Below, in pieces: positions 7,341 to 63,435 of a stretch of DNA of 64,000 bases. Origin of the DNA: a virus. Every line of letters starts with the position of its first letter. The first letter of the stretch is position 1. Made by a program: the position numbers and the translations under genes. Below the pieces are notes generated by a model. That model was not told the DNA's origin. It saw only the letters and a program-made list of their open reading frames with translations, and did not search any database. The DNA lies in the IMG/VR virus record IMGVR_UViG_3300028920_000038, positions 1 to 64,000 of that record, one strand, 5' to 3'.

Positions 7341-7514
7341 AATCTAAGAATATCTCAATACTTTTCCTGGAGATTTGGAAACATCAGTCATAGAGATTTC
7401 CCTCTAGTTTGATGTTATATTCTTCATTCCCTAATATTAAAATTCCTTCTAAAGTAAACTTTTCAGCTTTATTACTTGTAGAAGGTAATCCTTCTAAAGA
7501 TTCTATTTCAACTT

Positions 7515-9671
7515 TCATAGTATATCAATTATCCTATATAATTTTCCATCGTACTTAACATAATCTCCAGATTTTAAATCTTCCTTATTTTTTGGTATAG
7601 AATAAGATTGGATAACTTCTTGTCCAGGATCTGAACTTGAAGGAAATTCGATTGAACCTGAAGGTGATGGAATGTCATCTCCAAGTCTTGATATTTCTTC
7701 AACAGTCATTCTTTTAGGTTGGAATGAAGATAGTTTCTCTAGAACTTCTAAAGAATCTGAAGAATCTTTTTCTGGAATAATTTCTAGTGCTCTATTTATA
7801 TATCCTCTATAATAAGGATATCCTTCATTATCATACTTATTTACTTCCTCAGAGGCTACTCGAAGAATATCTCCTTCGTTTGCTTCTATTTTAGTATTGT
7901 CTGTTTTTCCATAATTAAATAGAGTTGAATTTTCTATCTGAACTTTCTTTGGAAGTTTTTCATAATGTTCATTTTCTACTTCTATTCCTAAGAAGTAATT
8001 CCAAACATCATCTTGACCTTTAATTAATTTTTTATCATAAATTTTTGTATCGACTTCATAGTATTTTTTAAGTTTCCCCCATCCTTTATTTTGAGGAGTT
8101 TCGTAGTGATGATCTAATAATTTTACCATAATTCCTTCCGCTATAAAGGAAGGTCTACGTGGAGCATCTAATAATTTTTCTATACAAGTATTAATTTTTT
8201 TGGTATCGGAACCATCTATTATGTAAGCATCTGCATCTATATCAAGATCTTTTGTATATCTTTCTATAAGAATATGATCTGTAGATTCGATTTGTCCAAG
8301 ATATTCTAATCTTTCATGAAGAGGTTGTTTTTGAATATTCTCTCCTTTGAAGTAAAGAATATCGAAAACAAAAACGTAAGCTACTTTACTTAGATTATCT
8401 GGAGAGAAATTAGTTGCATTTAAAAGAGAATTAGCTGTAGTTCTATGAAGTACTTCATTATCTTTAACAGCTATAAATTCGGCATCAAGAATAGTTCCGT
8501 CTGGAAGAGAATCTAACTCTTCGATTATTAAAGGAAGTCTGTCTGATACATCTGGAGATTTTTCTTTTAGAGTATCTGGATCTACATAACAGAAAGGTTT
8601 TCCATCAGCTTTTCCTATGGATAATCTTAACCCATCACATTTTATATCTAATAATAATTTTTCTGAATTCCATTTTGAAGATTTTAATTCATCTTCTATA
8701 GATTCAATTTCATATCTATAATAAGGCTTTGATACAGAATAATATCCTGGTTCCAATTTAGGTTCAGCTTTATCTTCTGTATTTCTTGAGATATGTTTTA
8801 TTCTTTTAACTCCTTTCTTATCTAACTCTATGAATTCTTTTTCCCAGTTAGAAATTTCAAAACTAGGTCTCCATCCATGAGGAGATTCCTTTTCTAATTC
8901 TTTTAATCTACTCCATAGTTTTGGATAATAGAGGAATAATTGAAATGCATCATTCTTAGTTAGATTAGGACAAATCCAACAAGAAGTTGTATTGAATTTT
9001 TCATAAAGAGGATTCATTAAGTTTTTCTTTAATAAATATTTCTCTGAATCTTCTCTAGTCCATCCCCATTCAATTAAGGGATATTTAATCTCATAGTCTA
9101 TTGTTTTATCTTTTATAATTCTATTTTTTTCTTCAGAACCATATCCAATATATGCAATTTGTTTAGAGCAAGCTTTTTGAATAGGATTTACTTTAGCTAT
9201 ACGTTTCCATGCACACATAGCTTGTCCTGGATATGGAAATCCTCTTATCTCTCCTTTTTTATCTCCTTTAATTTTTTTGGTATGAAACCAATTATCAAAA
9301 GAATCTGCAGGAGGAATAATTTCAATTTCTTTCTTAATATGTTTTTCAATCTTTTTTATGTACTCAATAGTTCCAGGTTTTTCTACTCCAGTATCTGCGA
9401 ATATAATTCTATCTATTGGATATTTTTTCTCTATCATATGGAGAAGCATAGCAGTACTTTGAACTCCTCCAGAATAACAAACTATATGTTCTTTGGATCC
9501 TTGATATCCAGAAGCATGAGCAGCTTGACCTTGCTTATCAGCTTTCTTTCTGGCTCTTTCTCTTGATGACGGATCTTTAGGATTATAATAATATTTCTTT
9601 CCTGATTTTCCCCAACGACAAAAATATCCTTTGGAATCTTTTAAACCGCACTTGGTTGGAATATAAATCAC
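7515..9671 (-). CDS. Fusion: small N-terminal basic domain + PAPS-reductase-like PP-loop domain + ATP-dependent DNA ligase nucleotidyltransferase domain
   Basis: aa ~61-290: CYSGGVQS PP-loop, FADTGVE, YIGY, YPL..WGW, SCWICP. aa ~340-540: ligase motifs IKCDG (I), LDAEF (III), FDILY (IIIa), EGIMVK (IV), WGKLKK (V). Confidence 0.85.
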   Translation of the reverse strand: MIYIPTKCGLKDSKGYFCRWGKSGKKYYYNPKDPSSRERARKKADKQGQAAHASGYQGSKEHIVCYSGGVQSTAMLLHMIEKKYPIDRIIFADTGVEKPGTIEYIKKIEKHIKKEIEIIPPADSFDNWFHTKKIKGDKKGEIRGFPYPGQAMCAWKRIAKVNPIQKACSKQIAYIGYGSEEKNRIIKDKTIDYEIKYPLIEWGWTREDSEKYLLKKNLMNPLYEKFNTTSCWICPNLTKNDAFQLFLYYPKLWSRLKELEKESPHGWRPSFEISNWEKEFIELDKKGVKRIKHISRNTEDKAEPKLEPGYYSVSKPYYRYEIESIEDELKSSKWNSEKLLLDIKCDGLRLSIGKADGKPFCYVDPDTLKEKSPDVSDRLPLIIEELDSLPDGTILDAEFIAVKDNEVLHRTTANSLLNATNFSPDNLSKVAYVFVFDILYFKGENIQKQPLHERLEYLGQIESTDHILIERYTKDLDIDADAYIIDGSDTKKINTCIEKLLDAPRRPSFIAEGIMVKLLDHHYETPQNKGWGKLKKYYEVDTKIYDKKLIKGQDDVWNYFLGIEVENEHYEKLPKKVQIENSTLFNYGKTDNTKIEANEGDILRVASEEVNKYDNEGYPYYRGYINRALEIIPEKDSSDSLEVLEKLSSFQPKRMTVEEISRLGDDIPSPSGSIEFPSSSDPGQEVIQSYSIPKNKEDLKSGDYVKYDGKLYRIIDIL

Positions 9672-9673
9672 TC

Positions 9674-9778
9674 CTAAAATATTTTATCCAATAAACCTAG
9701 GGCTTTTAGTGCAGCTAGAACTCCAACTAATGTAAGACAGGACCATCCTACAACTTTCATAAAGTTAGATAATTTCAT
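9674..9778 (-). CDS. Small single-TM protein (34 aa)
   Basis: Hand-read ORF MKLSNFMKVVGWSCLTLVGVLAALKALGLLDKIF filling the gap between neighbours. Confidence 0.5.
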   Translation of the reverse strand: MKLSNFMKVVGWSCLTLVGVLAALKALGLLDKIF

Positions 9779-9791
9779 TTTCTTGAAAATA

Positions 9792-10100
9792 TTATATATT
9801 GACATAGCAACTGAAGTGATCAATTATTTTTCTAGGTTTAAGTTTTAATTTAATATTATTACCAAATAAATCTCTACATCTAAATAATATTCTACCCCAT
9901 GGTTCACTAGAGACACTTGATACGTGATCTCTATATATAACTAATGGGATATCATAGGTTTCGCATTTTACAATAACAAATTCAGAATTTTTAATTTCTT
10001 CCTTTGTTCTTGGCCAAATTAATCTATCATTTACTTCTAGATTACTAAATATCCTGCAATAAGGGCAAGATGTGACCCATAGGGGTTTTTCGAGTTTCAT
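9792..10100 (-). CDS. Hypothetical protein with CPYC motif (possibly HIT-like small protein)
   Basis: CPYC...IVKCET..IPLVIYRDH pattern; ATGA-coupled to the upstream ORF. Confidence 0.45.
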   Translation of the reverse strand: MKLEKPLWVTSCPYCRIFSNLEVNDRLIWPRTKEEIKNSEFVIVKCETYDIPLVIYRDHVSSVSSEPWGRILFRCRDLFGNNIKLKLKPRKIIDHFSCYVNI

Positions 10101-10240
10101 AGGAATTTGAGGGTTTTGCCATCACTATCTTCAATGTCTAAATAATCCCCAAGTTCGTTATTCGCATTCCATCTACATTTATCACACAATTTTGAATAGT
10201 TCTTGCATTTCTTATAAAATGTACAAATTACTTCCTTCAT
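10097..10240 (-). CDS. Cys-rich micro-protein (47 aa)
   Basis: Hand-read ORF MKEVICTFYKKCKNYSKLCDKCRWN...; TAATG and ATGA overlaps with both neighbours. Confidence 0.55.
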   Translation of the reverse strand: MKEVICTFYKKCKNYSKLCDKCRWNANNELGDYLDIEDSDGKTLKFL

Positions 10241-10761
10241 TAGCTATCTCCTATAATTCTTGTATTTGTATCTGCAGGAAATGTAACTACTGCTGCTCCA
10301 ATAAAGGAGATGTTAGTAGCATATCTTTTTGAATCCTCAGAGTTCCAAATATCTTTCGACATTAGTTCTACAGATAAACTATTTATTAGCTTATTATCTA
10401 TTAAGCTAATAACATCCTTGGATGTTTGTGTATACGGATATATATATAAATCTGCTCTTAAAGCTTCTTTTTTATATATAGGACTTTTTATGTGACCAAT
10501 TCTATCTAATACATTCCAAGAATGGTCTACATTAAGATAATTACATTCCCAATTCTTAGTTGCCTTTTTTAATTCAGTTGAGGTGTAATTTGTAGGAATC
10601 CCTACTGATCCGTCAGTGTGACAACCAGGAGTTAAGAGAATGCATTCCCTATATATTCGAGCATCTCCATGCTTTTGAATTATTTTATTATTATATTCAA
10701 ATTTGGTTGTCAGACGATGTTTCGTCATCTCTTGGCTCTCGCTCTTCATATTCTTCTTCAT
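10240..10761 (-). CDS. Prohead (capsid maturation) protease, HK97/Mu-like; start probably 10728
   Basis: Directly downstream of portal; LNVDH...IG (His), SLSVE (Ser), GAAVVTFPA motifs. Confidence 0.75.
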   Translation of the reverse strand: MKKNMKSESQEMTKHRLTTKFEYNNKIIQKHGDARIYRECILLTPGCHTDGSVGIPTNYTSTELKKATKNWECNYLNVDHSWNVLDRIGHIKSPIYKKEALRADLYIYPYTQTSKDVISLIDNKLINSLSVELMSKDIWNSEDSKRYATNISFIGAAVVTFPADTNTRIIGDS

Positions 10762-12115
10762 TATCTTCCTCTTCTTCTTCAGGTTGGGTATAACCTAAAA
10801 TATCATCACCACCTTCTATTGGTGGATAATCGAACATTGATCTTATTTCATTTATACTAAATGGTTTATTACCTTCTGGAAAACCTCTTAATAAGTTTCC
10901 AAGCCATTTTGATTTTACAGCTTCATCAGCATCAGTTACAGAATTAAATTTCATATAAACAAGATTCTCTTCAAATCCATTATCTATTAGAATATCATTT
11001 ATAATCTGGGTTCTAACTTTTGTAGCTAGCTTTTGTTGGATAGCTTTTATGAATCTCTCGAACATAATTTCTCTAACTCTTGCAGATGCTTCTGTTGATC
11101 CTTCTCCAAGTCCTATAGATTCTCCTGGACATAGAAGTCCTACAATTAGTTGTTTCATAAAGGTATCGAAGTATTCTTCTACTCCTTGAATTCCTTTTTC
11201 GTCTATAGTATCTATGGATAGAACTCCTGGAACAATAAATTCATTCTTTGAATTAATATCTTCCATTTCACTCTTAATAGAATCAAATATAGCTTTTGGA
11301 GGAATATTTTCTTTATCTCCTACGGTCACTACATATTTAGCTGTATGTCTTTGGACTGCATTAAATATTGTATTATCTGTAGCCATTTTTCTATCGATGT
11401 TAGTTTGATTTGGTTCCAGTAATGAAATTCCATAAGGTGAATCGTGTCTTGGAAAGAAATTGAAATGAGTCATTTCAGCTTGTGATAAAATATCTTCCGA
11501 TAATCTCCCACTTATTTTTTGTTGATAAGATACTTCTCTTCCGAATTCATCTGTATTTACAATCATAGTTGTTGGATCTACTAATTTTAATTCTGCGAGA
11601 TATCCCTTAGGTTTTTCTTTCATAGATTTTATTGTGTTTAATCTATAATTCATATTTTTAATTAAGATTGGAAAGTTATTATATTTTACTAATCTGAGAG
11701 ATAATGGATCTTTGTATTTACTCATAGAATTTTTATTTCCTTTGGCTCTAACTTTCTCTAAATAAGAATCGCCAAATACTAAACCATATATAACTATATC
11801 TAGAAGTTTGCTATCTATATCCATTTCATCAAATTTAGCTTGAACTAATTTCTTGGCTTCAGGTTCAGCAGAGATGAGATGATATCCAACCATGACTGTA
11901 TTCCAAGCTATTGTATTTATAGATGCAAATATAGTTCCTTCAGAATCGTAATATTCCCAATATTTTTTAAGATTCTTTTCATTTCTCTTAGCTGGTATTC
12001 CTTTCTTATCAGATGAAGTTGTTATAGAAGAAATAACAGTTTTTGGATTTCCCTGACTATCTAACCATTTAGTTTCTTTATTTTTATTAGTTCTAAATCT
12101 ATCTAATATAGCCAT
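10697..12115 (-). CDS. Portal protein
   Basis: 472 aa just downstream of TerL; GLVFGDSYLEKV, LKLVDPTTM, SPYGISLLEP patterns typical of HK97-like portals; acidic C-terminal tail. Confidence 0.85.
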   Translation of the reverse strand: MAILDRFRTNKNKETKWLDSQGNPKTVISSITTSSDKKGIPAKRNEKNLKKYWEYYDSEGTIFASINTIAWNTVMVGYHLISAEPEAKKLVQAKFDEMDIDSKLLDIVIYGLVFGDSYLEKVRAKGNKNSMSKYKDPLSLRLVKYNNFPILIKNMNYRLNTIKSMKEKPKGYLAELKLVDPTTMIVNTDEFGREVSYQQKISGRLSEDILSQAEMTHFNFFPRHDSPYGISLLEPNQTNIDRKMATDNTIFNAVQRHTAKYVVTVGDKENIPPKAIFDSIKSEMEDINSKNEFIVPGVLSIDTIDEKGIQGVEEYFDTFMKQLIVGLLCPGESIGLGEGSTEASARVREIMFERFIKAIQQKLATKVRTQIINDILIDNGFEENLVYMKFNSVTDADEAVKSKWLGNLLRGFPEGNKPFSINEIRSMFDYPPIEGGDDILGYTQPEEEEEDNEEEYEEREPRDDETSSDNQI

Positions 12116-12117
12116 TT

Positions 12118-12378
12118 TTATTTCTTAGATTTTCTTATTCCAGATAAGACAATCTCTATTGAAGAAACATTTCTTTCCTCGAATGGTTCACTATTAATAG
12201 AGACACTATATCCTGGATTTTCTAAATAGTCTCTAATTAAAATTGCTACTATATCTATGGCTTTCTTTATGTAACTTCCACGAGCTACAATTTTAATTTC
12301 CTTATTTTCATTCAAGGCATAAAAACATGCTGTTATATATTGCGATATTTCCTTTTTTCCTATGTATATGTCTTCCAT
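12118..12378 (-). CDS. albA: Alba (Sso10b-family) DNA/RNA-binding protein
   Basis: IYIGKK...Y......IKIVARG..IKKAIDIV...I.SE....RNVSSIEIVL matches the archaeal Alba consensus. Confidence 0.9.
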   Translation of the reverse strand: MEDIYIGKKEISQYITACFYALNENKEIKIVARGSYIKKAIDIVAILIRDYLENPGYSVSINSEPFEERNVSSIEIVLSGIRKSKK

Positions 12379-12388
12379 ACTAATCCTC

Positions 12389-13798
12389 TCAAATTTTTGT
12401 TACTTTCCACATACCGTATGAAGTTTCTTTTGAGGATATCAAATTTGGCACTTCATTCCAGTTAACATTACTTCTTCTGTCTAATAAATCCTGAGAGGAT
12501 TGAACAGCAAACGATAAAGAATCGATTGTGTCATCGTGAGATCCTCTAGGAAAAGACGCTATTTCATCTATCCAATGAGTTAATCTTGGATTTATAGAAA
12601 TCCTACCAGTTTCAAATAGTAAGGATAATCTTTGAACTCTAGACATTCTATCATTAACCACTGAAGATTTTATTGGTATGATAGGTAAACTTGGATTCTT
12701 TTCAATTAAATCTTCTACTATTAATTTTTGTTGAGCAGCTTGCTCTACTCCTATTCTAATAGGGGTCCACTTCTGATCCAATTCATTAATAGTTTGAAAT
12801 TGTCTAGATAAGGTCAAATGACCTCTGTATCCATCAACAAGACTTACAAATCCATCATTAATAGTTATGACAGATATTGCGAAGTAATCGCTGTCTTCTC
12901 CTGATGATGCGAAGTCTACTCCCATATAAGATTTGAATGGTGCTGCAGGAATTTTATATATTTCCTTCGCATTTTCTATCCATTCCCATTTTATGGGAGC
13001 TTCTTCTTCTGAGATAAATTCATTCTGGTATTGCATCATAAAGCTTACATTACCATATGAATTTTTAATTTCTAATAGTTTTTCATATGACCATCTATCT
13101 GGCCATAGCACTTCTGCTTCTTCATCTTCTGTAGGCTCTTTAATTAGAGCTACATATTTCTTATTTATGTAATTAGGTAAACTTTCAAAGTAACTGTGAA
13201 TATCAGATTGATGCCATTTGGTACCAATGGATATCACTTTTCCATCTGGTTCAAGCATTGGCATAAGAGTCTGATTAAACCATCTTACAAGTTCTCTTCT
13301 ACGATGTTCGGTTCTTGAATTCTGTTGATCTGTTACATCGTCTAGAATAATAAGATCGTAATGTCCTCCAACCATAGAGGAAGTTACACCCAAAACCTGT
13401 AAGGTAGGTTCTTTAATACTCGATGAAGCTCCTTTTACTCTTATAGCAGATCTAGACCAATCAAGATGACTTTTCTGTTGTCCATATAATTCTGTTAATT
13501 TTTCGTTTGTCTCTAAATGTTTTTGTATAAGAGACATTATCTCATTAGCTTTATCTTGATTAATTGTAACTAGAAGAATTCGCACATTTGGATTTGTGAC
13601 TATTCTCCATATTACATAAGCGCTAACTATAAAAGTTTTTCCATGTCCTCTAGGAGCTAATAATGATATGTGAGAATTATTCTCAAATAAATCTAACCAT
13701 TCCTGGTGAAAATTTACGCATTGTAATCCTAGAATATCAGTCGTAAATAATATAGGATCAGTTGAATACTTTAAGAGTTTCTTTATATCTGAAGTCAT
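12389..13798 (-). CDS. terL: Terminase large subunit
   Basis: Walker A APRGHGKT, Walker B LIILDD, coupling motif IGT, nuclease GVDFA and HDDTIDS. Confidence 0.95.
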   Translation of the reverse strand: MTSDIKKLLKYSTDPILFTTDILGLQCVNFHQEWLDLFENNSHISLLAPRGHGKTFIVSAYVIWRIVTNPNVRILLVTINQDKANEIMSLIQKHLETNEKLTELYGQQKSHLDWSRSAIRVKGASSSIKEPTLQVLGVTSSMVGGHYDLIILDDVTDQQNSRTEHRRRELVRWFNQTLMPMLEPDGKVISIGTKWHQSDIHSYFESLPNYINKKYVALIKEPTEDEEAEVLWPDRWSYEKLLEIKNSYGNVSFMMQYQNEFISEEEAPIKWEWIENAKEIYKIPAAPFKSYMGVDFASSGEDSDYFAISVITINDGFVSLVDGYRGHLTLSRQFQTINELDQKWTPIRIGVEQAAQQKLIVEDLIEKNPSLPIIPIKSSVVNDRMSRVQRLSLLFETGRISINPRLTHWIDEIASFPRGSHDDTIDSLSFAVQSSQDLLDRRSNVNWNEVPNLISSKETSYGMWKVTKI

Positions 13799-40141: not shown

Positions 40142-40696
40142 ATGAAATTAGAGAAAATATTATCTGAACATATAAATAAAAGTAAACCAAAATATACAAG
40201 AGAATTAGGAAGATATTGGGCTACTGATATCAATTCAATAAAGAAAGGATACCTTACTCCAGATAACTTCTTTGTTAGTAAAGATATTAATATAGACGGA
40301 GTTAGGATGATACTAACTGGTATGGCCTATGAAGATATGCTCACCAAGATATTTAAAGAAGGTGGAGTTGATTGTAGTCCTCAAGAGAAAAAGGTCATGA
40401 AAATTACAGAGGAAATAGATCTGGTTGTTAAACCTGATTATGTGTTTCCAGACTTTGTTGTTGAAACTAAATATCCATTCTCTGTGATGAAACCTAATAG
40501 TATACCAGATAGATATAAATATCAATTAGAGTGTGAGTATAGGGCATTTGAAAGACCAGTTTATTTGGGAACATTCTCTGCTCCTTTTAATGTTACATTT
40601 ACTTTGTATCATCCTTCAAAGAATATCTGGAAGAATATACAAAAGACCTTGGTAGATTTTCATGAACAGCTTAAGAAGAAGCAAAATGAAATATGA
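40142..40696 (+). CDS. PD-(D/E)XK (Cas4-like) exonuclease
   Basis: G...E, KPDY...VVETK...YQL motifs. Confidence 0.75.
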   Translation: MKLEKILSEHINKSKPKYTRELGRYWATDINSIKKGYLTPDNFFVSKDINIDGVRMILTGMAYEDMLTKIFKEGGVDCSPQEKKVMKITEEIDLVVKPDYVFPDFVVETKYPFSVMKPNSIPDRYKYQLECEYRAFERPVYLGTFSAPFNVTFTLYHPSKNIWKNIQKTLVDFHEQLKKKQNEI

Positions 40697-41733
40697 TATT
40701 AAAGAGTTTATATTATGATCCAAACGGAATTGCAAGAGGAATTGTTGAGAACAATAGTAGGCAATATAACGTCTCCATCTGTCGTGAATTTAACCGTAGT
40801 TGGTGTTCATGCGCCTACAATCTTTTCAATAAGAGTCCTTGCAAACACATAATGTTTTTACTTGGTGAAGTGGATTTGAATAAAATGGTAAAGAAGAAAA
40901 TTTTAGATAGATTAGAAACAGGTTGTAAAACAATAGATGATCTTCTAGCTGGAGGTGTTCCATACTCTATTGTATCTGGAGTATATGGTAAACCAATGGC
41001 TGGTAAGTCGATGTTTTGTTATCAGATAGCTCTTGCTAACATTAAAGATAATGATAGAAAAGTTCTGTATATAGATACAGAAGGAATTAGAGTTACTGAT
41101 ATTAGAAGATTAATGTATAAATTTGGTGAGAGATTTGATTTAAAACCAGAAGAGATTAATAATAAAATAGAAATTATTAGTACTCTTGGTGATGTTCAAT
41201 TAAAATCTCTACAGAAATTGTTTAGAATGTTCGGTGAAATGGTTACACTCGATCAGTCAAAAGGAGGTAAATACACTCCTCACTTTGAAGTTTGTCATCC
41301 TACATATGATGATAAGAAGCTTGGAGAATATTCTATGATTATCATTGATTCATTATCAAAACCAATCAAAGATGCCATAGGTTCTAATACACCTAATCTA
41401 CCTGCTAGATCTCAGATACAGGAGAGACTATTCGGTATGCTAACACACAAAGCTATGATGCATAATCTAGCAATTATAATTAATCATCATACTACAAGAA
41501 ATCCTGCTATGCCTTTCGGTGAAGACTTCGGAACTCCTTCTGGTGGAGATGCTATTATGTATAATACCAAATATGTCCTGGAATTCTGGACAGCTACTAA
41601 TAAGATTAAGAATGATTCCAATTGGGGTATTGAAGCAAGACGAGTTAGATTATTCCGACATCCAACAGAACAAGTTACTGGAGAATGGCAAGTAGTAAGG
41701 CTCAAGAAAGATTACGGATATACGGATGAATAA
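40693..41733 (+). CDS. radB: RadA/RadB-like recombinase with N-terminal SWIM zinc finger
   Basis: WCSC......PCKHI (SWIM); LETGCKTIDDLLAGG, Walker A GKPMAGKS, YIDTEG, Walker B IIIDS. Confidence 0.85.
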   Translation: MILKSLYYDPNGIARGIVENNSRQYNVSICREFNRSWCSCAYNLFNKSPCKHIMFLLGEVDLNKMVKKKILDRLETGCKTIDDLLAGGVPYSIVSGVYGKPMAGKSMFCYQIALANIKDNDRKVLYIDTEGIRVTDIRRLMYKFGERFDLKPEEINNKIEIISTLGDVQLKSLQKLFRMFGEMVTLDQSKGGKYTPHFEVCHPTYDDKKLGEYSMIIIDSLSKPIKDAIGSNTPNLPARSQIQERLFGMLTHKAMMHNLAIIINHHTTRNPAMPFGEDFGTPSGGDAIMYNTKYVLEFWTATNKIKNDSNWGIEARRVRLFRHPTEQVTGEWQVVRLKKDYGYTDE

Positions 41734-46816: not shown

Positions 46817-47707
46817 ATGAATATGACAGACTTATTTAGTATCCCTTTCGGTCATAGAAAGATTGGTTATTGGAATGGAGGATTCGGAGGTCAATCTAAA
46901 GTATATACTAAAAAAGATATAATAGATTTTGTGGATGAACATCTAGGTATAGATAATATAGGATTATCTGTATGTACATATAAAGAAGATATTCCATATT
47001 TATTATTTCTACCATTTGACTTTGATTCTAAAGATCTTAAAAAATCATGGAAAGATGCTATTAAATTATTTAATCACTTTACTATTATAGGATTAGACTG
47101 TCACTTAACATTCTCAGGTAGAAAAGGATTTCATGTATTCCTTTCAGTAGTACCTAAGAATTATAATAAATATCTAATTAAAAAGATTCAAGTGTTCTTT
47201 AAAAAAGAATTAGGTCTCAAAACTATGGATCCAGCAATCTTCGGTCAGGATAATAGACTGATGAGAATACCTTACACCTTTAATATAGGTGGAGATATGT
47301 GTAAAGAAATACGTTGGAACAAAGGTAATCTATTAGATTTAGATATGATATTAGCAGGTCCAACTTATAAATCTTCTAGTTTAGATTATGACAAAGGAGG
47401 ATATCACAAGTATCCTTGTATAGAAAAACTTATAAGAGAAGATCCAGAACCTAGAGAGTTAATAAGACTATCTTATGTGGCTTTAAGATTAGATAAAGGA
47501 TGGACTGAAGAGGAAATTCTGGAAGAAATAAAGTCATTCGATTGGATAGACTTTGATGAAGAGAAAACAAGAAATAAGATTAGATATATAAGTGATGGTA
47601 ATTATAGACCATTAAGCTGCAAATCCATGGAAGAACGTGGATATTGTAAAGAACCTTGTAAATATAGAAATGGAGATAACGTTTTAGAGGAGGTTGGTAT
47701 ATTATGA
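46817..47707 (+). CDS. priS: Archaeo-eukaryotic primase (PriS catalytic domain fused to PriL/PriX-like C-terminal domain)
   Basis: PFDFD, FSGRKGFHVF, D..RLMRIP.T; C-terminal YPCI...SCKSM..GYCKEPC. Confidence 0.85.
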   Translation: MNMTDLFSIPFGHRKIGYWNGGFGGQSKVYTKKDIIDFVDEHLGIDNIGLSVCTYKEDIPYLLFLPFDFDSKDLKKSWKDAIKLFNHFTIIGLDCHLTFSGRKGFHVFLSVVPKNYNKYLIKKIQVFFKKELGLKTMDPAIFGQDNRLMRIPYTFNIGGDMCKEIRWNKGNLLDLDMILAGPTYKSSSLDYDKGGYHKYPCIEKLIREDPEPRELIRLSYVALRLDKGWTEEEILEEIKSFDWIDFDEEKTRNKIRYISDGNYRPLSCKSMEERGYCKEPCKYRNGDNVLEEVGIL

Positions 47708-48101
47708 GTGAAGAAGAAAGAACTTGTAGAGAATGCGGAGAACCGTTAGAAGATTACGAAGAAGATCTATGCGAAGACTGTAGAAATAATTTAGCATCAG
47801 CTATATTTAATACGGATGAAATAGACAATGAATTATTTTAATATACTGGTTTGTATCGGAGGAGTTACTCTTATAGCTTATTTATTAGCTAATAAGATGA
47901 GACATATGATGAGTCAAGTAAGATTATTTAAAACTGTTACTAAAGGCGGAGATCCAGAAGATCTTCCAGATAAAGAAGAATTACAAAATTTAATTATGAC
48001 TGTAGCTAAACAGCTACACAAAAAGAAAGAAGAAGAAAAGAAAGACGGAAATAGAGGAATGTACGGTTAATGTTATTTAGCTATAAAGAGGTATAACTGA
48101 T

Positions 48102-50429
48102 ATGAAGTTGGAGCCTATTAGCGAGTTATTAGATTATAATTTTGATAAAGACTCTCTTATATACATAAGTGATGATCATTTTGTATATGGAGAGGAATTA
48201 GACGAAAGTATAATTAAAGATATAAAAGACCATACCATTCAGATATATACTGGATATTATATCCATGAAAAAGGATGGAAGAGTCCTAAGATATATCTGT
48301 TGGGGAGAGGTAAGAATTCAGGTAAAGTTAAATTGAAGATACAGAATTTCAAACCTTATTGTTATATTAAAGCGGATGATGGAGATTATAAGGATTACCT
48401 TGGTAATAAATGTAAACAAATGATCTTCGAAACTCATCCATCAAGAATAAAATTCTATAGAGAAAGGCGTAGGAAATCTCATTATCCATTACCATATGAA
48501 GCAGACATTCTCTTCGTGAGGAGATTCCTCTGTGATGTGTATGATTATTTCAAACCTAAAGAAAAGATACAACCTAGAATAGCTATCATAGATATTGAAA
48601 CAGACTATCCAGTTAGTGAAGATATTATAGCATGGTCTATTAATGACATGGAAGGAGATATTGTTTATAGATCAAAGTTTGATGGTTTGTCATCAAAAGA
48701 ATTATCCCTGGAATTATATAACAGATTATTAGAATACGACGTAGTAACTGGATGGAACATCAATTTCGATATGGAAGAATTACAAAAACAACTAGATAGA
48801 TTTGGAACAGATAAATATATAATAGCCAATGAAATAGCAAAGATAGATTTATTAATTATATCGAAAAAGATGTATGCAAAGGAAATAAAAGGAAACTGGT
48901 CATTGGATAATGTTGGTAAGAATATTTGTGGATTAGATAAAATCCATATTGGATCCAAACAGATAAGAGATTTAGATGAGCAAGAGTTATTAGAGTATAA
49001 CGTGAGAGATAGTATCATACCTGAGATCATAGATAATGTACTTGGAGGTTTAGAAGGACATTTGATTCTATCATGGAGTCTTCAATGTATATTAGATGAT
49101 ACTACTATAACAGCAGTTGTAAATGATATAGCTCTATTAAGAGCATATCACAGAGCTGGTATAGTATTACCTTCAAGAGATTATAGTAAAGATAAATCAA
49201 AGGAAGCTAAATATAAAGCAGCAGAACCTGATGCTAGACCTGGTGTCTATAGGGAAGTAATAGCCACTGATCTTGAACATGCATACCCATCTGCTGTAAT
49301 TGCTAAGAATATATCACCAGAAACTAAGGATCCAAATGGAGTTCATGAGACTCCTAATGGAATTAGATTTAATGATAAGCATAGTGTATTTATAGATACC
49401 CTTAAAGAGATCATGATAGATAGAGGAAAAATTAAGAGTGAAATGAATAAGTTGGATCCTAAAACTGAAGAATGGAAGAAACTTAAATCTATTGATTTTG
49501 CTTTGAAGACACAAGCAGCAGCATTTAGTCATGGTATATTTGGATGGTCTAATAGCAGAATGAAAGATTATGAAGTGGCAGATTCTATTACAGCAGTTGT
49601 AAGAGATTTGATAGATACAATCAAAGAAGCTTGCGATGTAATTGGAAGACCTTGGATATATGCTCATACAGATTCAGCTTATATAAATGCACCTAAATCT
49701 GAGAAAGAAAAGATAATGAATTATCTAAATAATATCATAGAAGAGCATTGTAAAGGATATCTAATTACTCCAAAATTAGACTATAAAAAATATTATAAAG
49801 TGACTTATATACATTCACCTGCCAGAAATGTCATGGTCCCAGAAGATGTGGGTATTGATGATGATGAAGAATGGGATGTAACTGGCATGAATTTTATGAG
49901 GTCAGAAACAGCAGAACCTCTTGGTAGAATAGAAATAGATTTAATAAAGATGCTATTCAAGAAAAGATCTAAAGATAGTATTTTAAGTGAATTAAAGAAT
50001 AGAATTAAAGATTTGATAAATGAAAATTCAACAGAACTCGGAGTAATAAAACCCTTAAACAAATCAATTAGTGAATATGGAAAATTAAAAAAGGATGGAG
50101 ATATGGGAGGAATTCCATACCATATTAAAGCTTTAAAGAGAGCTAATCGTGAATATGGATATTCTGTCAATGTTGGTGAGAAGTTTATGATAATTCCTAT
50201 ATATACTGATGAAACAGAAGGAGTTAGAGTTATTAGAAGAAAGAAGATATTTATGGCATATGATATAGAAAAAGGTTTACCAGATAAATATGTAATAGAT
50301 TATGAAACATATTTAAGATCAAACTTATGGGGTAAAATAAATAATATATTTGATGTATCTCCTAAGGAATTGGAGAAATGTGTTATGACAGATGATGTAA
50401 AATCTGCATTATTTGCAGGTATAATATAG
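48102..50429 (+). CDS. polB: Family B DNA polymerase with variant motifs
   Basis: Exo DIET / GWNINFD / YNVRD; motif A DLEHAYPS; motif B KTQAAAFSHG; motif C YAHTDS. Confidence 0.92.
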   Translation: MKLEPISELLDYNFDKDSLIYISDDHFVYGEELDESIIKDIKDHTIQIYTGYYIHEKGWKSPKIYLLGRGKNSGKVKLKIQNFKPYCYIKADDGDYKDYLGNKCKQMIFETHPSRIKFYRERRRKSHYPLPYEADILFVRRFLCDVYDYFKPKEKIQPRIAIIDIETDYPVSEDIIAWSINDMEGDIVYRSKFDGLSSKELSLELYNRLLEYDVVTGWNINFDMEELQKQLDRFGTDKYIIANEIAKIDLLIISKKMYAKEIKGNWSLDNVGKNICGLDKIHIGSKQIRDLDEQELLEYNVRDSIIPEIIDNVLGGLEGHLILSWSLQCILDDTTITAVVNDIALLRAYHRAGIVLPSRDYSKDKSKEAKYKAAEPDARPGVYREVIATDLEHAYPSAVIAKNISPETKDPNGVHETPNGIRFNDKHSVFIDTLKEIMIDRGKIKSEMNKLDPKTEEWKKLKSIDFALKTQAAAFSHGIFGWSNSRMKDYEVADSITAVVRDLIDTIKEACDVIGRPWIYAHTDSAYINAPKSEKEKIMNYLNNIIEEHCKGYLITPKLDYKKYYKVTYIHSPARNVMVPEDVGIDDDEEWDVTGMNFMRSETAEPLGRIEIDLIKMLFKKRSKDSILSELKNRIKDLINENSTELGVIKPLNKSISEYGKLKKDGDMGGIPYHIKALKRANREYGYSVNVGEKFMIIPIYTDETEGVRVIRRKKIFMAYDIEKGLPDKYVIDYETYLRSNLWGKINNIFDVSPKELEKCVMTDDVKSALFAGII

Positions 50430-60986: not shown

Positions 60987-61592
60987 ATGAAGATTACTTT
61001 GCTTGATTATACTGAAAATGGAATGAATAAAATAGCCAGAATGGCAAGAGCAACAAGATTGAATAGTTATGAGAATGGATTTGAATTAGATGAAACTAAA
61101 GATGATAAATTTGTTAAGAGATTAATAAGAGTGGGACATCTAGGAATTCTAGAACACATCTCCTTTACTTTTCATATATCAGAAGTGAGTAGGTGTTTAA
61201 CACATCAATTGGTAAGACATAGGATAGCATCCTATTTACAGATGAGTAATAGACATGCTAAGCCAGAGTTTCGTGGATATGTAACTCCAATTTCAATTAA
61301 TACTATAGAATATAAAGAATTCATGGATAATGCATATCTACTATACCGAGATATGATAGCAGATGGTTTACCTATAGAAGATGCAAGATATGTTTTACCA
61401 CCTGCATTCTTTACTCATATATCAGTAACTATGAATTGTAGAGAATTACTCCATTTCTTTGAATTGAGATGTGATAAAGCAGCTCAATGGGAAATAAGAG
61501 GAATGGCTTTAGAAATGTTAAAAATATGTTATGAAAAATATCCAGTGATATTTAAGGATATTTATGATAAGTACAAGAAGGATATAAAATGA
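60987..61592 (+). CDS. thyX: FAD-dependent thymidylate synthase
   Basis: H.GILEH, SR..THQLVRHRIASY.QMS.R, EDARYVLP, R....AQWEIR. Confidence 0.95.
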   Translation: MKITLLDYTENGMNKIARMARATRLNSYENGFELDETKDDKFVKRLIRVGHLGILEHISFTFHISEVSRCLTHQLVRHRIASYLQMSNRHAKPEFRGYVTPISINTIEYKEFMDNAYLLYRDMIADGLPIEDARYVLPPAFFTHISVTMNCRELLHFFELRCDKAAQWEIRGMALEMLKICYEKYPVIFKDIYDKYKKDIK

Positions 61593-61909
61593 ATTATACA
61601 TGGTCAACTACAACATCTAGTCATTGTGGAGATGGATCTAGTTATCACTTTTATTATGATAAACCATATAAGAATAAGCCAGCTACATGGGAAGATGTAT
61701 TTAAAATCAATTGGGATAAAATAAATCAAGTTCCTAAACCAGAAAAACCTACAGATATATTCAGTAGAGAAGAGACTATAATAACTAAAGATGGAGAATC
61801 AATATCATTAACTCTTGGAGAGTTATATGAATTGGAGAAACTTGGATTAGATCCAACAAAAATGACAAAGGAAGAATTAGAACAGCAATTATTAGCTATA
61901 AGGTTATAA
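61589..61909 (+). CDS. Hypothetical protein with shared C-terminal motif
   Basis: Ends TKEELEQQLLAIRL*. Confidence 0.6.
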   Translation: MNYTWSTTTSSHCGDGSSYHFYYDKPYKNKPATWEDVFKINWDKINQVPKPEKPTDIFSREETIITKDGESISLTLGELYELEKLGLDPTKMTKEELEQQLLAIRL

Positions 61910-61923
61910 ATGTTTATATAAAA

Positions 61924-63435
61924 ATGAGGAATAAAATGAATTTAAGTGACGCTGCGATTGAATTAATGAAGACTAAATATTGTAGTCACGGAGAAAAACC
62001 AAAAGATATATTTCCTAGAGTTGGAAAGGCATTAGCTCAACAGATGAACGGAGATGAGGATGCAGAGCAATTCACTAAAATAATGGAAGACCTGGACTTT
62101 TTACCTAATAGTCCATGTTTAAGAAATGCAGGCTATTCAAATATGGTAAAAGCGTGTTTTGTATTACCTGTTGATGATTCTATGGAGAGTATATTTAGAA
62201 CTCTTAAAGACTCTGCTATGGTTTTTAAATCTGGTGGAGGAGTTGGATATAACTTCAGTGACTTACGGGAAAGAGGAGCTACATTATCACATGGAGGAAC
62301 ATCCTCTGGTGTCATGTCCTTTATGAAGATCTATAATTCTATAACAGAAGCGGTCAAACAGGGAGGTTTTAGACGTGGAGCTTCTATGGGAGTTTTGGAT
62401 GTAGATCATCCTGAGATATTAGATTTTATAAAAGAGAAATTATCTAAAGGATCAATGAATAATTTTAATCTATCTGTAATGGCTACAGATGATTTTATGA
62501 AAGGTGTTGAAGAAGATAATAAGGTATTCCTTAGAAGTCGATTAGATAAAAGAGTTATTAAAGGCAAATTTAATTGTAGAGATTTGTTTAATATTATATG
62601 CTATTCAGCTTGGTTAACAGGAGATCCGGGATTATTATTCTATGATAGAATTAATAAAGACAATCCACATTATCCTAAATATGATATAAGAAGTACGAAT
62701 CCTTGTGGTGAAGTTCCTTTACTTCCATATGAATCTTGTTGTTTGGGAAGTATAAATTTAGCCAATTTTGTGACAAAGGACGGAGAATTTGATGTAGATA
62801 GATTCTCTAATATGGTTAGGATAGGAACTAAATTCTTAATGGCTATGACTAAGATCTGTGAATTTCCTATAGATGAGTGTTATACAGCTCAATCAAGATA
62901 TATGAGATTAGGTCTTGGAGTTATGGGATTTGCAGATATGCTTATGAAGATGGGTATACTATACGATTCAGATGATACTCTTAAGATGATAGATACTATA
63001 GGACCTATTATGCAAGAATCCAAACAATATGCTCCTATGTCAGTGGCTACATTATCCATAGCACCAACAGGAAGTTTATCTATTATTGCTAACTGTTCAT
63101 CTGGTATAGAACCTTGGTTCAGTAAATCGTACACCAGACATCTTACACATGGTAAAGTTAAAGAATCGAGAGATTCTAAATATCTAAGAACTGCTCATGA
63201 TATATCACCTGAATGGCATTTGAAAGTTCAATCTAGATGGCAATCTTATATAGATAATGGAGTAAGTAAAACAATTAATTTACCTCATAATGCTACTATT
63301 CAAGATGTTCAGAATATCTATATGAATGCTTGGAAGATGGGCTGTAAAGGAATTACCATCTTTAGGGATGGATGCCTTGGAGATACCGGACAAGTTCTTA
63401 GAAATACTTGCGATGAAGGTGATTGTTATCTATGA
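61924..63435 (+). CDS. nrdJ: Class II (B12-dependent) ribonucleotide reductase, compact
   Basis: PNSP, ACFV, GGGVG, TNPCGE, CCLGSINL, IAPTGS, SSGIEP, SKTIN; no NrdB nearby. Confidence 0.9.
   Translation: MRNKMNLSDAAIELMKTKYCSHGEKPKDIFPRVGKALAQQMNGDEDAEQFTKIMEDLDFLPNSPCLRNAGYSNMVKACFVLPVDDSMESIFRTLKDSAMVFKSGGGVGYNFSDLRERGATLSHGGTSSGVMSFMKIYNSITEAVKQGGFRRGASMGVLDVDHPEILDFIKEKLSKGSMNNFNLSVMATDDFMKGVEEDNKVFLRSRLDKRVIKGKFNCRDLFNIICYSAWLTGDPGLLFYDRINKDNPHYPKYDIRSTNPCGEVPLLPYESCCLGSINLANFVTKDGEFDVDRFSNMVRIGTKFLMAMTKICEFPIDECYTAQSRYMRLGLGVMGFADMLMKMGILYDSDDTLKMIDTIGPIMQESKQYAPMSVATLSIAPTGSLSIIANCSSGIEPWFSKSYTRHLTHGKVKESRDSKYLRTAHDISPEWHLKVQSRWQSYIDNGVSKTINLPHNATIQDVQNIYMNAWKMGCKGITIFRDGCLGDTGQVLRNTCDEGDCYL

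Follow-up and report, generated by a model that had tools for sequence, protein, structure and literature searches.

A single open reading frame (ORF) of a virus from marine sediment encodes a PP-loop domain of the PAPS (3'-phosphoadenosine-5'-phosphosulfate) reductase type and an ATP-dependent DNA ligase in one polypeptide. The ORF was found in the first 64 kb (the window) of a 137,847-bp IMG/VR virus record with a completeness rating of 87% (IMGVR_UViG_3300028920_000038). It occupies positions 7515-9671 of the minus strand, starts with GTG, and specifies 718 amino acids followed by a stop codon. The PP-loop plus ligase architecture is new, in the sense that it is undescribed as far as we searched: no paper combining the terms "PAPS reductase" and "ATP-dependent DNA ligase" was found, in line with the initial annotation of this DNA, which was made from the letters alone and knew of no such fusion. 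Comparison with related loci suggests that the linker of a ligase encoded in the structural module received, in frame, a whole PP-loop gene of a DNA-modification type. We consider it probable that this happened in one lineage only and that the two halves act independently of each other.

The protein has four parts, a 58-residue N-terminal mini-domain, the PP-loop domain, a Lig1-type ligase core and a C-terminal hairpin. The two halves (residues 1-300 and 301-718) were folded separately by AlphaFold2 (AF2), each with its own alignment; confidence is given as predicted local distance difference test (pLDDT) scores. The features, all on the minus strand, are:

7515-9671, minus: whole fusion ORF, 718 residues plus stop, GTG start, unbroken in an independent contig at depth 109

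9498-9671, minus: N-terminal mini-domain, residues 1-58, three short strands and one long helix, two cysteines, ending in ...AAHASGY

8772-9497, minus: SspD/PAPS-reductase-like PP-loop ATP-pyrophosphatase domain, residues 59-300, by PF01507, phrog_424, the PADLOC SspD model and the AF2 fold

9456-9473, minus: PP-loop SGGVQS, residues 67-72, family consensus SGGKDS

9207-9221, minus: Cys153 within AMCAW, third cysteine of the putative iron-sulfur (Fe-S) site

8967-8981, minus: C231-W-I-C234-P, the family-invariant CxxC, C231 conserved in all 120 homologues and C234 in all but one

8037-8771, minus: ligase nucleotidyltransferase domain, residues 301-545, containing motifs I, III, IIIa, IV and V; adenosine monophosphate (AMP) is predicted to be accepted by Lys344

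7707-8036, minus: OB-fold domain, residues 546-655, an AF2 beta-barrel with pLDDT above 90

7518-7706, minus: low-confidence linker and small C-terminal beta-hairpin (..SGDYVKYDGKLYRIIDIL), residues 656-718, pLDDT 28-72

The insertion point could be placed exactly by comparison with a related locus, L007, where the mini-domain passes straight into the ligase (...AAHASGY-SGAEKSLNPDYYSRAKPYYRFE). The window protein reads ...AAHASGY-QGSKEHIVCYSGG...PP-loop...KLEPGYYSVSKPYYRYE, so that the insert lies precisely at the L007 junction of mini-domain and ligase. It comprises a whole standalone protein, from about residue 2 (SKEHIVCYSGG versus MKKHIISFSGG) to the C-terminal helices. No second protein with both domains was found among 5.8 billion protein clusters in a word-indexed search, which considers only candidates sharing short words with the query. 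This PP-loop domain occurs in just one other long protein, P0171, where it is combined with DUF5661 (DUF5661 + PAPS_reduct). In the related ligase loci, about 42 in number, a PP-loop homologue was never present within 10 kb of the ligase gene (0/42).

The fusion ORF is a genuine single gene, and a chimera or frameshift error is very unlikely. The stretch was present in a single public run, a marine sediment metagenome that is probably its source, and in relatives the N-terminal peptide and the ligase can be separate ORFs, which might raise the suspicion that an assembly chimera or a sequencing error had fused separate genes. However, the Logan assembly of the same run contains a single 3467-nt contig at depth 109 that spans 7465-10200 without differences, indels or joints. 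This contig comes from an independent assembler working on the same sample rather than from an independent sample. It is identical over 2.7 kb, and inside the ORF there was no variant at a reporting threshold of 10%. Since an artefact would in addition have taken two separate errors, we assign it a negligible probability.

All sequence hallmarks listed in the initial annotation for the 718-residue ORF (SGGVQS, C...CxxC, and ligase motifs I, III, IIIa, IV and V) were present. Its assignment of the two halves was borne out by Pfam matches above cut-off and by AF2 models searched with Foldseek. For the PP-loop half, PF01507 (PAPS_reduct) matched residues 62-235 with an expectation value (E) of 2.7e-12 (47.5 bits, cut-off 22.5), and the PHROGs family was phrog_424, "PAPS reductase" (E 3.6e-37). 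The PADLOC SspD model matched over almost its whole length (E 2.6e-18, model positions 2-238 of 277) and the BrxP model weakly (E 2.4e-5); the PADLOC DndC models gave no match at E 0.01 or better. The NCBIfam models cysH and PAPS_reductase fell far short of their cut-offs (25 bits versus 165-254). The model of residues 1-300 had a pLDDT of 92, and its top Foldseek hits were CysH and APS reductases (TM score 0.5-0.6 by target), followed by GMP synthetase, TtuA and NcsA. The C-terminal catalytic cysteine of true PAPS reductases, in an ECGLH-type tail, is missing, and no cysteine follows C234 in the domain. By analogy with DndC and TtuA-type enzymes, which serve as the model for a three-cysteine [4Fe-4S] site (PMC10853773), the Fe-S-type cysteines noted earlier, C153, C231 and C234, likely form a three-cysteine Fe-S site.

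The PP-loop itself is altered. SGGVQS keeps the Ser, Gly, Gly and Ser of SGGxDS, but the glutamine at the aspartate position is unique among the 120 homologues compared, where the consensus Lys is found in 98 and the consensus Asp in 105 (the Asp position is Asn in 8 and Glu in 1). Altogether four near-invariant positions are changed in the window copy (K70V, D71Q, R228T and Q237L), and only 1 of the 120 homologues departs jointly at D71 and R228.

The ligase half appears intact. PF01068 (DNA_ligase_A_M) matched residues 333-535 (E 5.2e-14, 52.8 bits, cut-off 26.2), and the PHROGs match was phrog_114, ATP-dependent ligase. The motifs are KCDGLR (I, residues 344-349, with the AMP-accepting lysine K344), LDAEF (III, 395-399), FVFDILYF (IIIa, 434-441), EGIMVK (IV, 512-517) and WGKLKK (V, 531-536). 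Motif I and the catalytic residues are invariant throughout the ligase family, and the window protein conforms to every column that is invariant across 16 aligned members. The model of residues 301-718 had a pLDDT of 84. Archaeal ATP-dependent ligases and human Lig1 (nucleotidyltransferase and OB domains) were its top Foldseek hits, with alignments of about 360-410 columns and E from 1e-16 to 1e-13. Pfam did not detect PF04675, the N-terminal DNA-binding domain of cellular Lig1-type enzymes, in the ORF. In this the protein resembles minimal viral ligases, and ligase activity is still compatible with the absence. PF01068 and PF01507 each matched once in the whole record.

Relatives of the ligase, 40-62% identical over residues ~305-655, were found in metagenomes and at the IMG/VR loci mentioned above, and their terminal domains vary. 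The C-terminal hairpin is common to P0002, P0003, P0005, P0006, P0009 and P0011, and other relatives have a domain of ~300 residues in its place. A profile search of PDB sequences gave no support for identifying the latter (in P0004 and others) as a LigD 3'-phosphoesterase. At the other end, two relatives have metallo-beta-lactamase-like N-termini. The mini-domain (AF2 block with pLDDT 70-94) is fused directly to the ligase in L007 and forms a separate ORF of 83-84 residues just upstream of the ligase in L006 (1625-1876) and L001 (9702-9956). It matched no Pfam family, a word-indexed search with the N-terminal 58 residues returned the query alone, and the ESM Atlas yielded just unnamed viral clusters, with scores below 0.9, for the 84-residue ORF.

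The ligase genes of sister loci also contain insertions. In L119 (7028-9300), an in-frame LAGLIDADG-type intein (Cys ... HN|C) interrupts the conserved motif LHRT|xANSLLN. In L108 (9070-9770), L109 and L111, a ~700-nt insertion with an HNH-endonuclease-like ORF in another frame interrupts the gene, which may reflect either a split gene or an intron that harbours a homing endonuclease. We also note that P0002, P0005, P0006 and L108 carry a module without Pfam match (ESEQxYVSRCIxFE...P...QIxRMCYEKY) between the N-terminal peptide and the ligase core; the PP-loop domain of the window protein occupies this very linker.

With residues 56-300 as query, an exhaustive phmmer search returned 2128 relatives of the PP-loop domain. 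The best of them were standalone proteins of 235-242 residues with 40-44% identity. Neighbouring genes were counted at 80 viral loci with the closest homologues. The most frequent neighbours were a C5 DNA methylase (29 loci), a PD-(D/E)XK nuclease (24), a ParB_N plus N6/N4 methylase protein (18) and PolB (12); at 10 loci the small terminase gene (TerS) was found three genes away. Another neighbour cluster (15 loci) is related to the 296-residue PriL-like protein encoded at 46817-47707 in the window. In single cases the PP-loop gene immediately precedes TerL (L014) or separates the TerL and portal genes (PV036458). Based on these neighbours, the family belongs to DNA modification, replication or packaging contexts and not to sulfate assimilation. 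Among the searchable viral records that carry the closest standalone homologues, 39 in number, not one had a PF01068 ligase (0/39).

A further arrangement was seen in the L026-L037 group (L030, 6897-10630; L026, 6735-9681), where the standalone PP-loop gene is situated inside a replication block in the order PolB, PP-loop gene, PD-(D/E)XK nuclease and a relative of the PriL-like gene.

The initial annotation placed the fusion in the head module, between a prohead protease and fibre genes. The position in such a module was upheld, as the gene follows genes for TerL, an Alba protein, a portal protein and proteins of 173 and 102 residues; the prohead protease is represented only by a marginal S78 match of the 173-residue protein. 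The genes in question are:

12389-13798, minus: TerL, terminase large subunit (phrog_38, E 1.6e-86; Terminase_6N, Terminase_6C)

12118-12378, minus: Alba-domain protein (PF01918, E 4.5e-10)

10697-12115, minus: portal protein (phrog_9232, E 7e-21)

10240-10761, minus: p173, conserved gene after the portal gene, marginal prohead protease S78 match (E 3e-4)

9792-10100, minus: p102, HIT-like (CxxC ... H ... DHxHxH), conserved immediately before the ligase at 20 loci

The order u185, u113, TerL, Alba, portal, p173 and p102 upstream of the ligase was conserved at 20 or more IMG/VR loci, with protein identities of 25-60%, and the same block was also present in L001 and in the P0004 contig. The Alba gene always lies between TerL and portal genes (in the window and at 19 related loci), and the gene for the N-terminal peptide sits between the HIT-like gene and the ligase. 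The ligase of the P0004 contig is located between the portal gene and genes for an S78 protease and capsid proteins.

Homologues of p102 (L108, 7408-7728; L007, 7677-7997; L008, 4286-4597) share the pattern GCPxCxI ... VVxxxH ... DHxHxHI. In the window the triad is degenerate, DHFSCYV instead of the DHxHxH of most relatives, with two of the three histidines gone. Pfam gave no match for p102, and three of its four PDB profile matches were HIT proteins, all of them weak (E 0.04-2.8). A HIT enzyme adjoining a ligase suggests removal of 5'-AMP in the manner of aprataxin.

The marine-sediment virus is tailed and about 138 kb in size. Its host is probably archaeal, judging from the Alba, PriL, RadA-like and PolB genes in the record. 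Shine-Dalgarno-like motifs were enriched at -15 to -6 in a count of promoter and ribosome-binding site motifs, which is compatible with bacteria and many archaea alike. Archaeal-type replication and nucleotide genes are found on the plus strand of the window at 46817-50429, 40693-41733 and 60987-63435; they encode the PriL-like protein (E 3.6e-7), PolB, a SWIM plus Rad51/RadA-like ATPase, ThyX, and the large subunit of ribonucleotide reductase.

According to the reading that we favor, the scaffold would be a lineage-specific ligase made up of the N-terminal mini-domain, the nucleotidyltransferase and OB domains and the C-terminal hairpin. A complete standalone viral gene of the SspD/PAPS-reductase-like type would have entered, in frame, the flexible linker between mini-domain and nucleotidyltransferase domain. 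The ligase half would self-adenylate on Lys344 and seal nicks in viral DNA, most likely late in infection and, to judge from gene order, in connection with packaging. It may also serve replication, as it is the only ATP-dependent (PF01068-type) ligase found in the record. The PP-loop half would be, or would have been, a DNA-modification-type ATP pyrophosphatase with a three-cysteine Fe-S site, independent of ligation, and may now be either independently active or decaying. The fused state must at least be tolerated, because the reading frame has stayed open for 2.1 kb and because this is the sole PF01068-type ligase found in the record. Seen in the light of the related sequences, the fusion would be a lineage-specific accretion event, like the intein, the HNH-containing insertion and the swapped terminal domains of the sister ligases, and does not in itself speak for coupling between the halves.

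Several observations weigh against this reading. The insert has the GC content and the GC content at third codon positions of its flanks, and hence shows no compositional sign of a recent arrival. The window copy departs from the PP-loop family in 4 of 29 conserved columns, which is no more than is seen in 23% of the homologues, and it retains the other 25, including all three cysteines. The open frame, the conserved residues and the matching composition together suggest a domain kept by selection rather than a fresh accident, and the fused state may thus confer some benefit. The role in packaging is read from gene order, and the count of a single ligase covers PF01068-type enzymes in a record 87% complete; NAD-dependent ligases were not searched. 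Finally, the sequence is known from a single sample.

The same observations bear on the possibility that the PP-loop domain is catalytically dead in the window protein and persists as an appendage of the ligase with a structural, nucleotide-binding or DNA-binding role, perhaps in place of the HIT-like neighbor. The replacements at near-invariant positions, among them the unique D71Q and the rare joint departure at D71 and R228, argue for it, and so does the likewise degenerate triad of the neighboring p102. Against it stand the tolerance of the aspartate site in homologues, the ordinary total of departures and the retention of the cysteines and of the remaining conserved columns. On balance we regard a dead domain as possible, if unlikely.

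The initial annotation proposed instead that a single enzyme modifies DNA at nicks and seals them. The PP-loop/Fe-S domain would then modify DNA at the nick, by a phosphorothioate or another sulfur group via an adenylated intermediate, and the ligase on the same chain would close it. The best profile match, SspD, is consistent with such a role, since DndC, SspD and BrxP are the PAPS-reductase-like parts of phosphorothioate systems (PMC12914056). The retained cysteines, the DNA methyltransferases and nucleases next to the parent family, which suggest that it acts on DNA, and the persistence of an open frame with a composition like that of its flanks also fit. However, the fusion is a singleton, the two families never co-occur (0/39 and 0/42), and the parent PP-loop family works without a viral ligase. 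In addition, the fused copy lacks the near-invariant Lys-Asp pair in its PP-loop, and Arg228 has been exchanged as well. Known phosphorothioate synthesis moreover depends on a sulfur donor as well as a P-loop NTPase (PMC12914056). Two SspC models found nothing in the 87%-complete record, a result of little weight for the one model that was also silent in control genomes; DndD and BrxC were not searched. A cysteine desulfurase was likewise not detected (no PF00266, Aminotran_5, match in the record), but a host enzyme could substitute. Among the circumstances that the initial annotation had itself named as refuting its proposal, an assembly chimera is contradicted by the identical Logan contig, but a one-off fusion of families that do not otherwise co-occur is what was found within the reach of the searches, and the proposal fails on this point. 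A one-off insertion among relatives without PP-loop domain lends little support to a new combined chemistry, and we consider a coupled enzyme of this kind doubtful. A stricter version, in which an SspD-like Fe-S domain installs sulfur or another mark at the adenylate-activated nick and the same chain closes it as a self-contained writer and sealer, appears improbable to us. Viral DNA would in that case receive its mark shortly before packaging, and the DndD/SspC-type ATPase on which every known phosphorothioate system depends would be dispensable.

The gene order also raises the question of whether the protein is built into the virion, at a MuF/gp7-type position, and enters the cell with the genome to seal or circularize the incoming DNA, with the mini-domain as incorporation signal. 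The order portal, p173, p102, N-terminal peptide and ligase is conserved across deep divergence, the P0004 contig has its ligase between portal and protease/capsid genes, and the terminal domains are modular. Yet the support consists of gene order, the mini-domain matched nothing informative, Pfam found no MuF-type domain in the fusion ORF, and late nick sealing before packaging accounts equally well for the position. A virion protein therefore seems rather unlikely. We return to independent halves, joined by insertion, as the probable state of affairs.

Viral "PAPS reductase" genes of this type are usually annotated in the literature as sulfate assimilation or sulfur-metabolism auxiliary genes (e.g., 10.1101/2021.07.29.453957). 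These widespread genes accompany DNA methyltransferases, nucleases and polymerases, and now a ligase, which argues against this routine annotation. On the strength of the gene neighborhoods, a DNA-directed role fits the PP-loop family better than sulfate assimilation. Should the halves cooperate after all, the protein would be the first DNA modification enzyme coupled to a ligase and could serve as a minimal model of the action of PAPS-reductase-like proteins on DNA, a question still posed by DndC and SspD. Independent of this question, the conserved block of terminase, Alba, portal, HIT-like and ligase genes is now defined for a lineage of probably archaeal tailed viruses. With it, a puzzle noted in the literature, why a ligase should be retained among the structural genes of such viruses, can be put to the test.

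The puzzle stems from the magroviruses (Aoguangviridae), in which a distinct ATP-dependent ligase was reported inside the structural module and termed unexpected (Philosof et al., 2017, PMC5434244). Magrovirus sequences did not turn up in the collections searched, and the likeness drawn here is one of gene context: in both cases the virus is large, tailed and probably archaeal, has archaeal-type replication genes of its own, and encodes a ligase within a group of terminase, portal and capsid genes. The position of the ligase is therefore not new in kind. For the magrovirus enzyme, in contrast, no PP-loop domain, HIT-like neighbor or N-terminal mini-domain was described (PMC5434244). With SspD, DndC and BrxP the window protein shares the profile matches reported above for SspD and BrxP, the PP-loop fold and cysteines suited to an Fe-S cluster. 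It differs in that its parent family is standalone, with about 240 residues, and in its altered PP-loop, and no SspA, SspC or cysteine desulfurase was found in the virus record (SspB was not searched). To our knowledge, no ligase belongs to any described Dnd, Ssp or BREX-4 system. The phage "PAPS reductases" of phrog_424 are the same family, and, in contrast to what their usual sulfur-metabolism label implies, their closest members adjoin genes for DNA methyltransferases, nucleases, PolB and terminases.

Ligase cores that gather accessory nucleic-acid enzymes are familiar. Bacterial LigD carries a ligase, a polymerase and a phosphoesterase on one chain. In the archaeal virus ANMV-1 (KP703175.1, L136; 1913-5800), an 866-residue ATP-dependent ligase directly follows a 426-residue MutT/Nudix-like hydrolase about 4.4 kb from TerL, another case of a large ligase and a nucleotide hydrolase near packaging genes. 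The window protein resembles both in this respect. It differs from them in that the accessory domain, of a kind not found in any other ligase, is a PP-loop enzyme.

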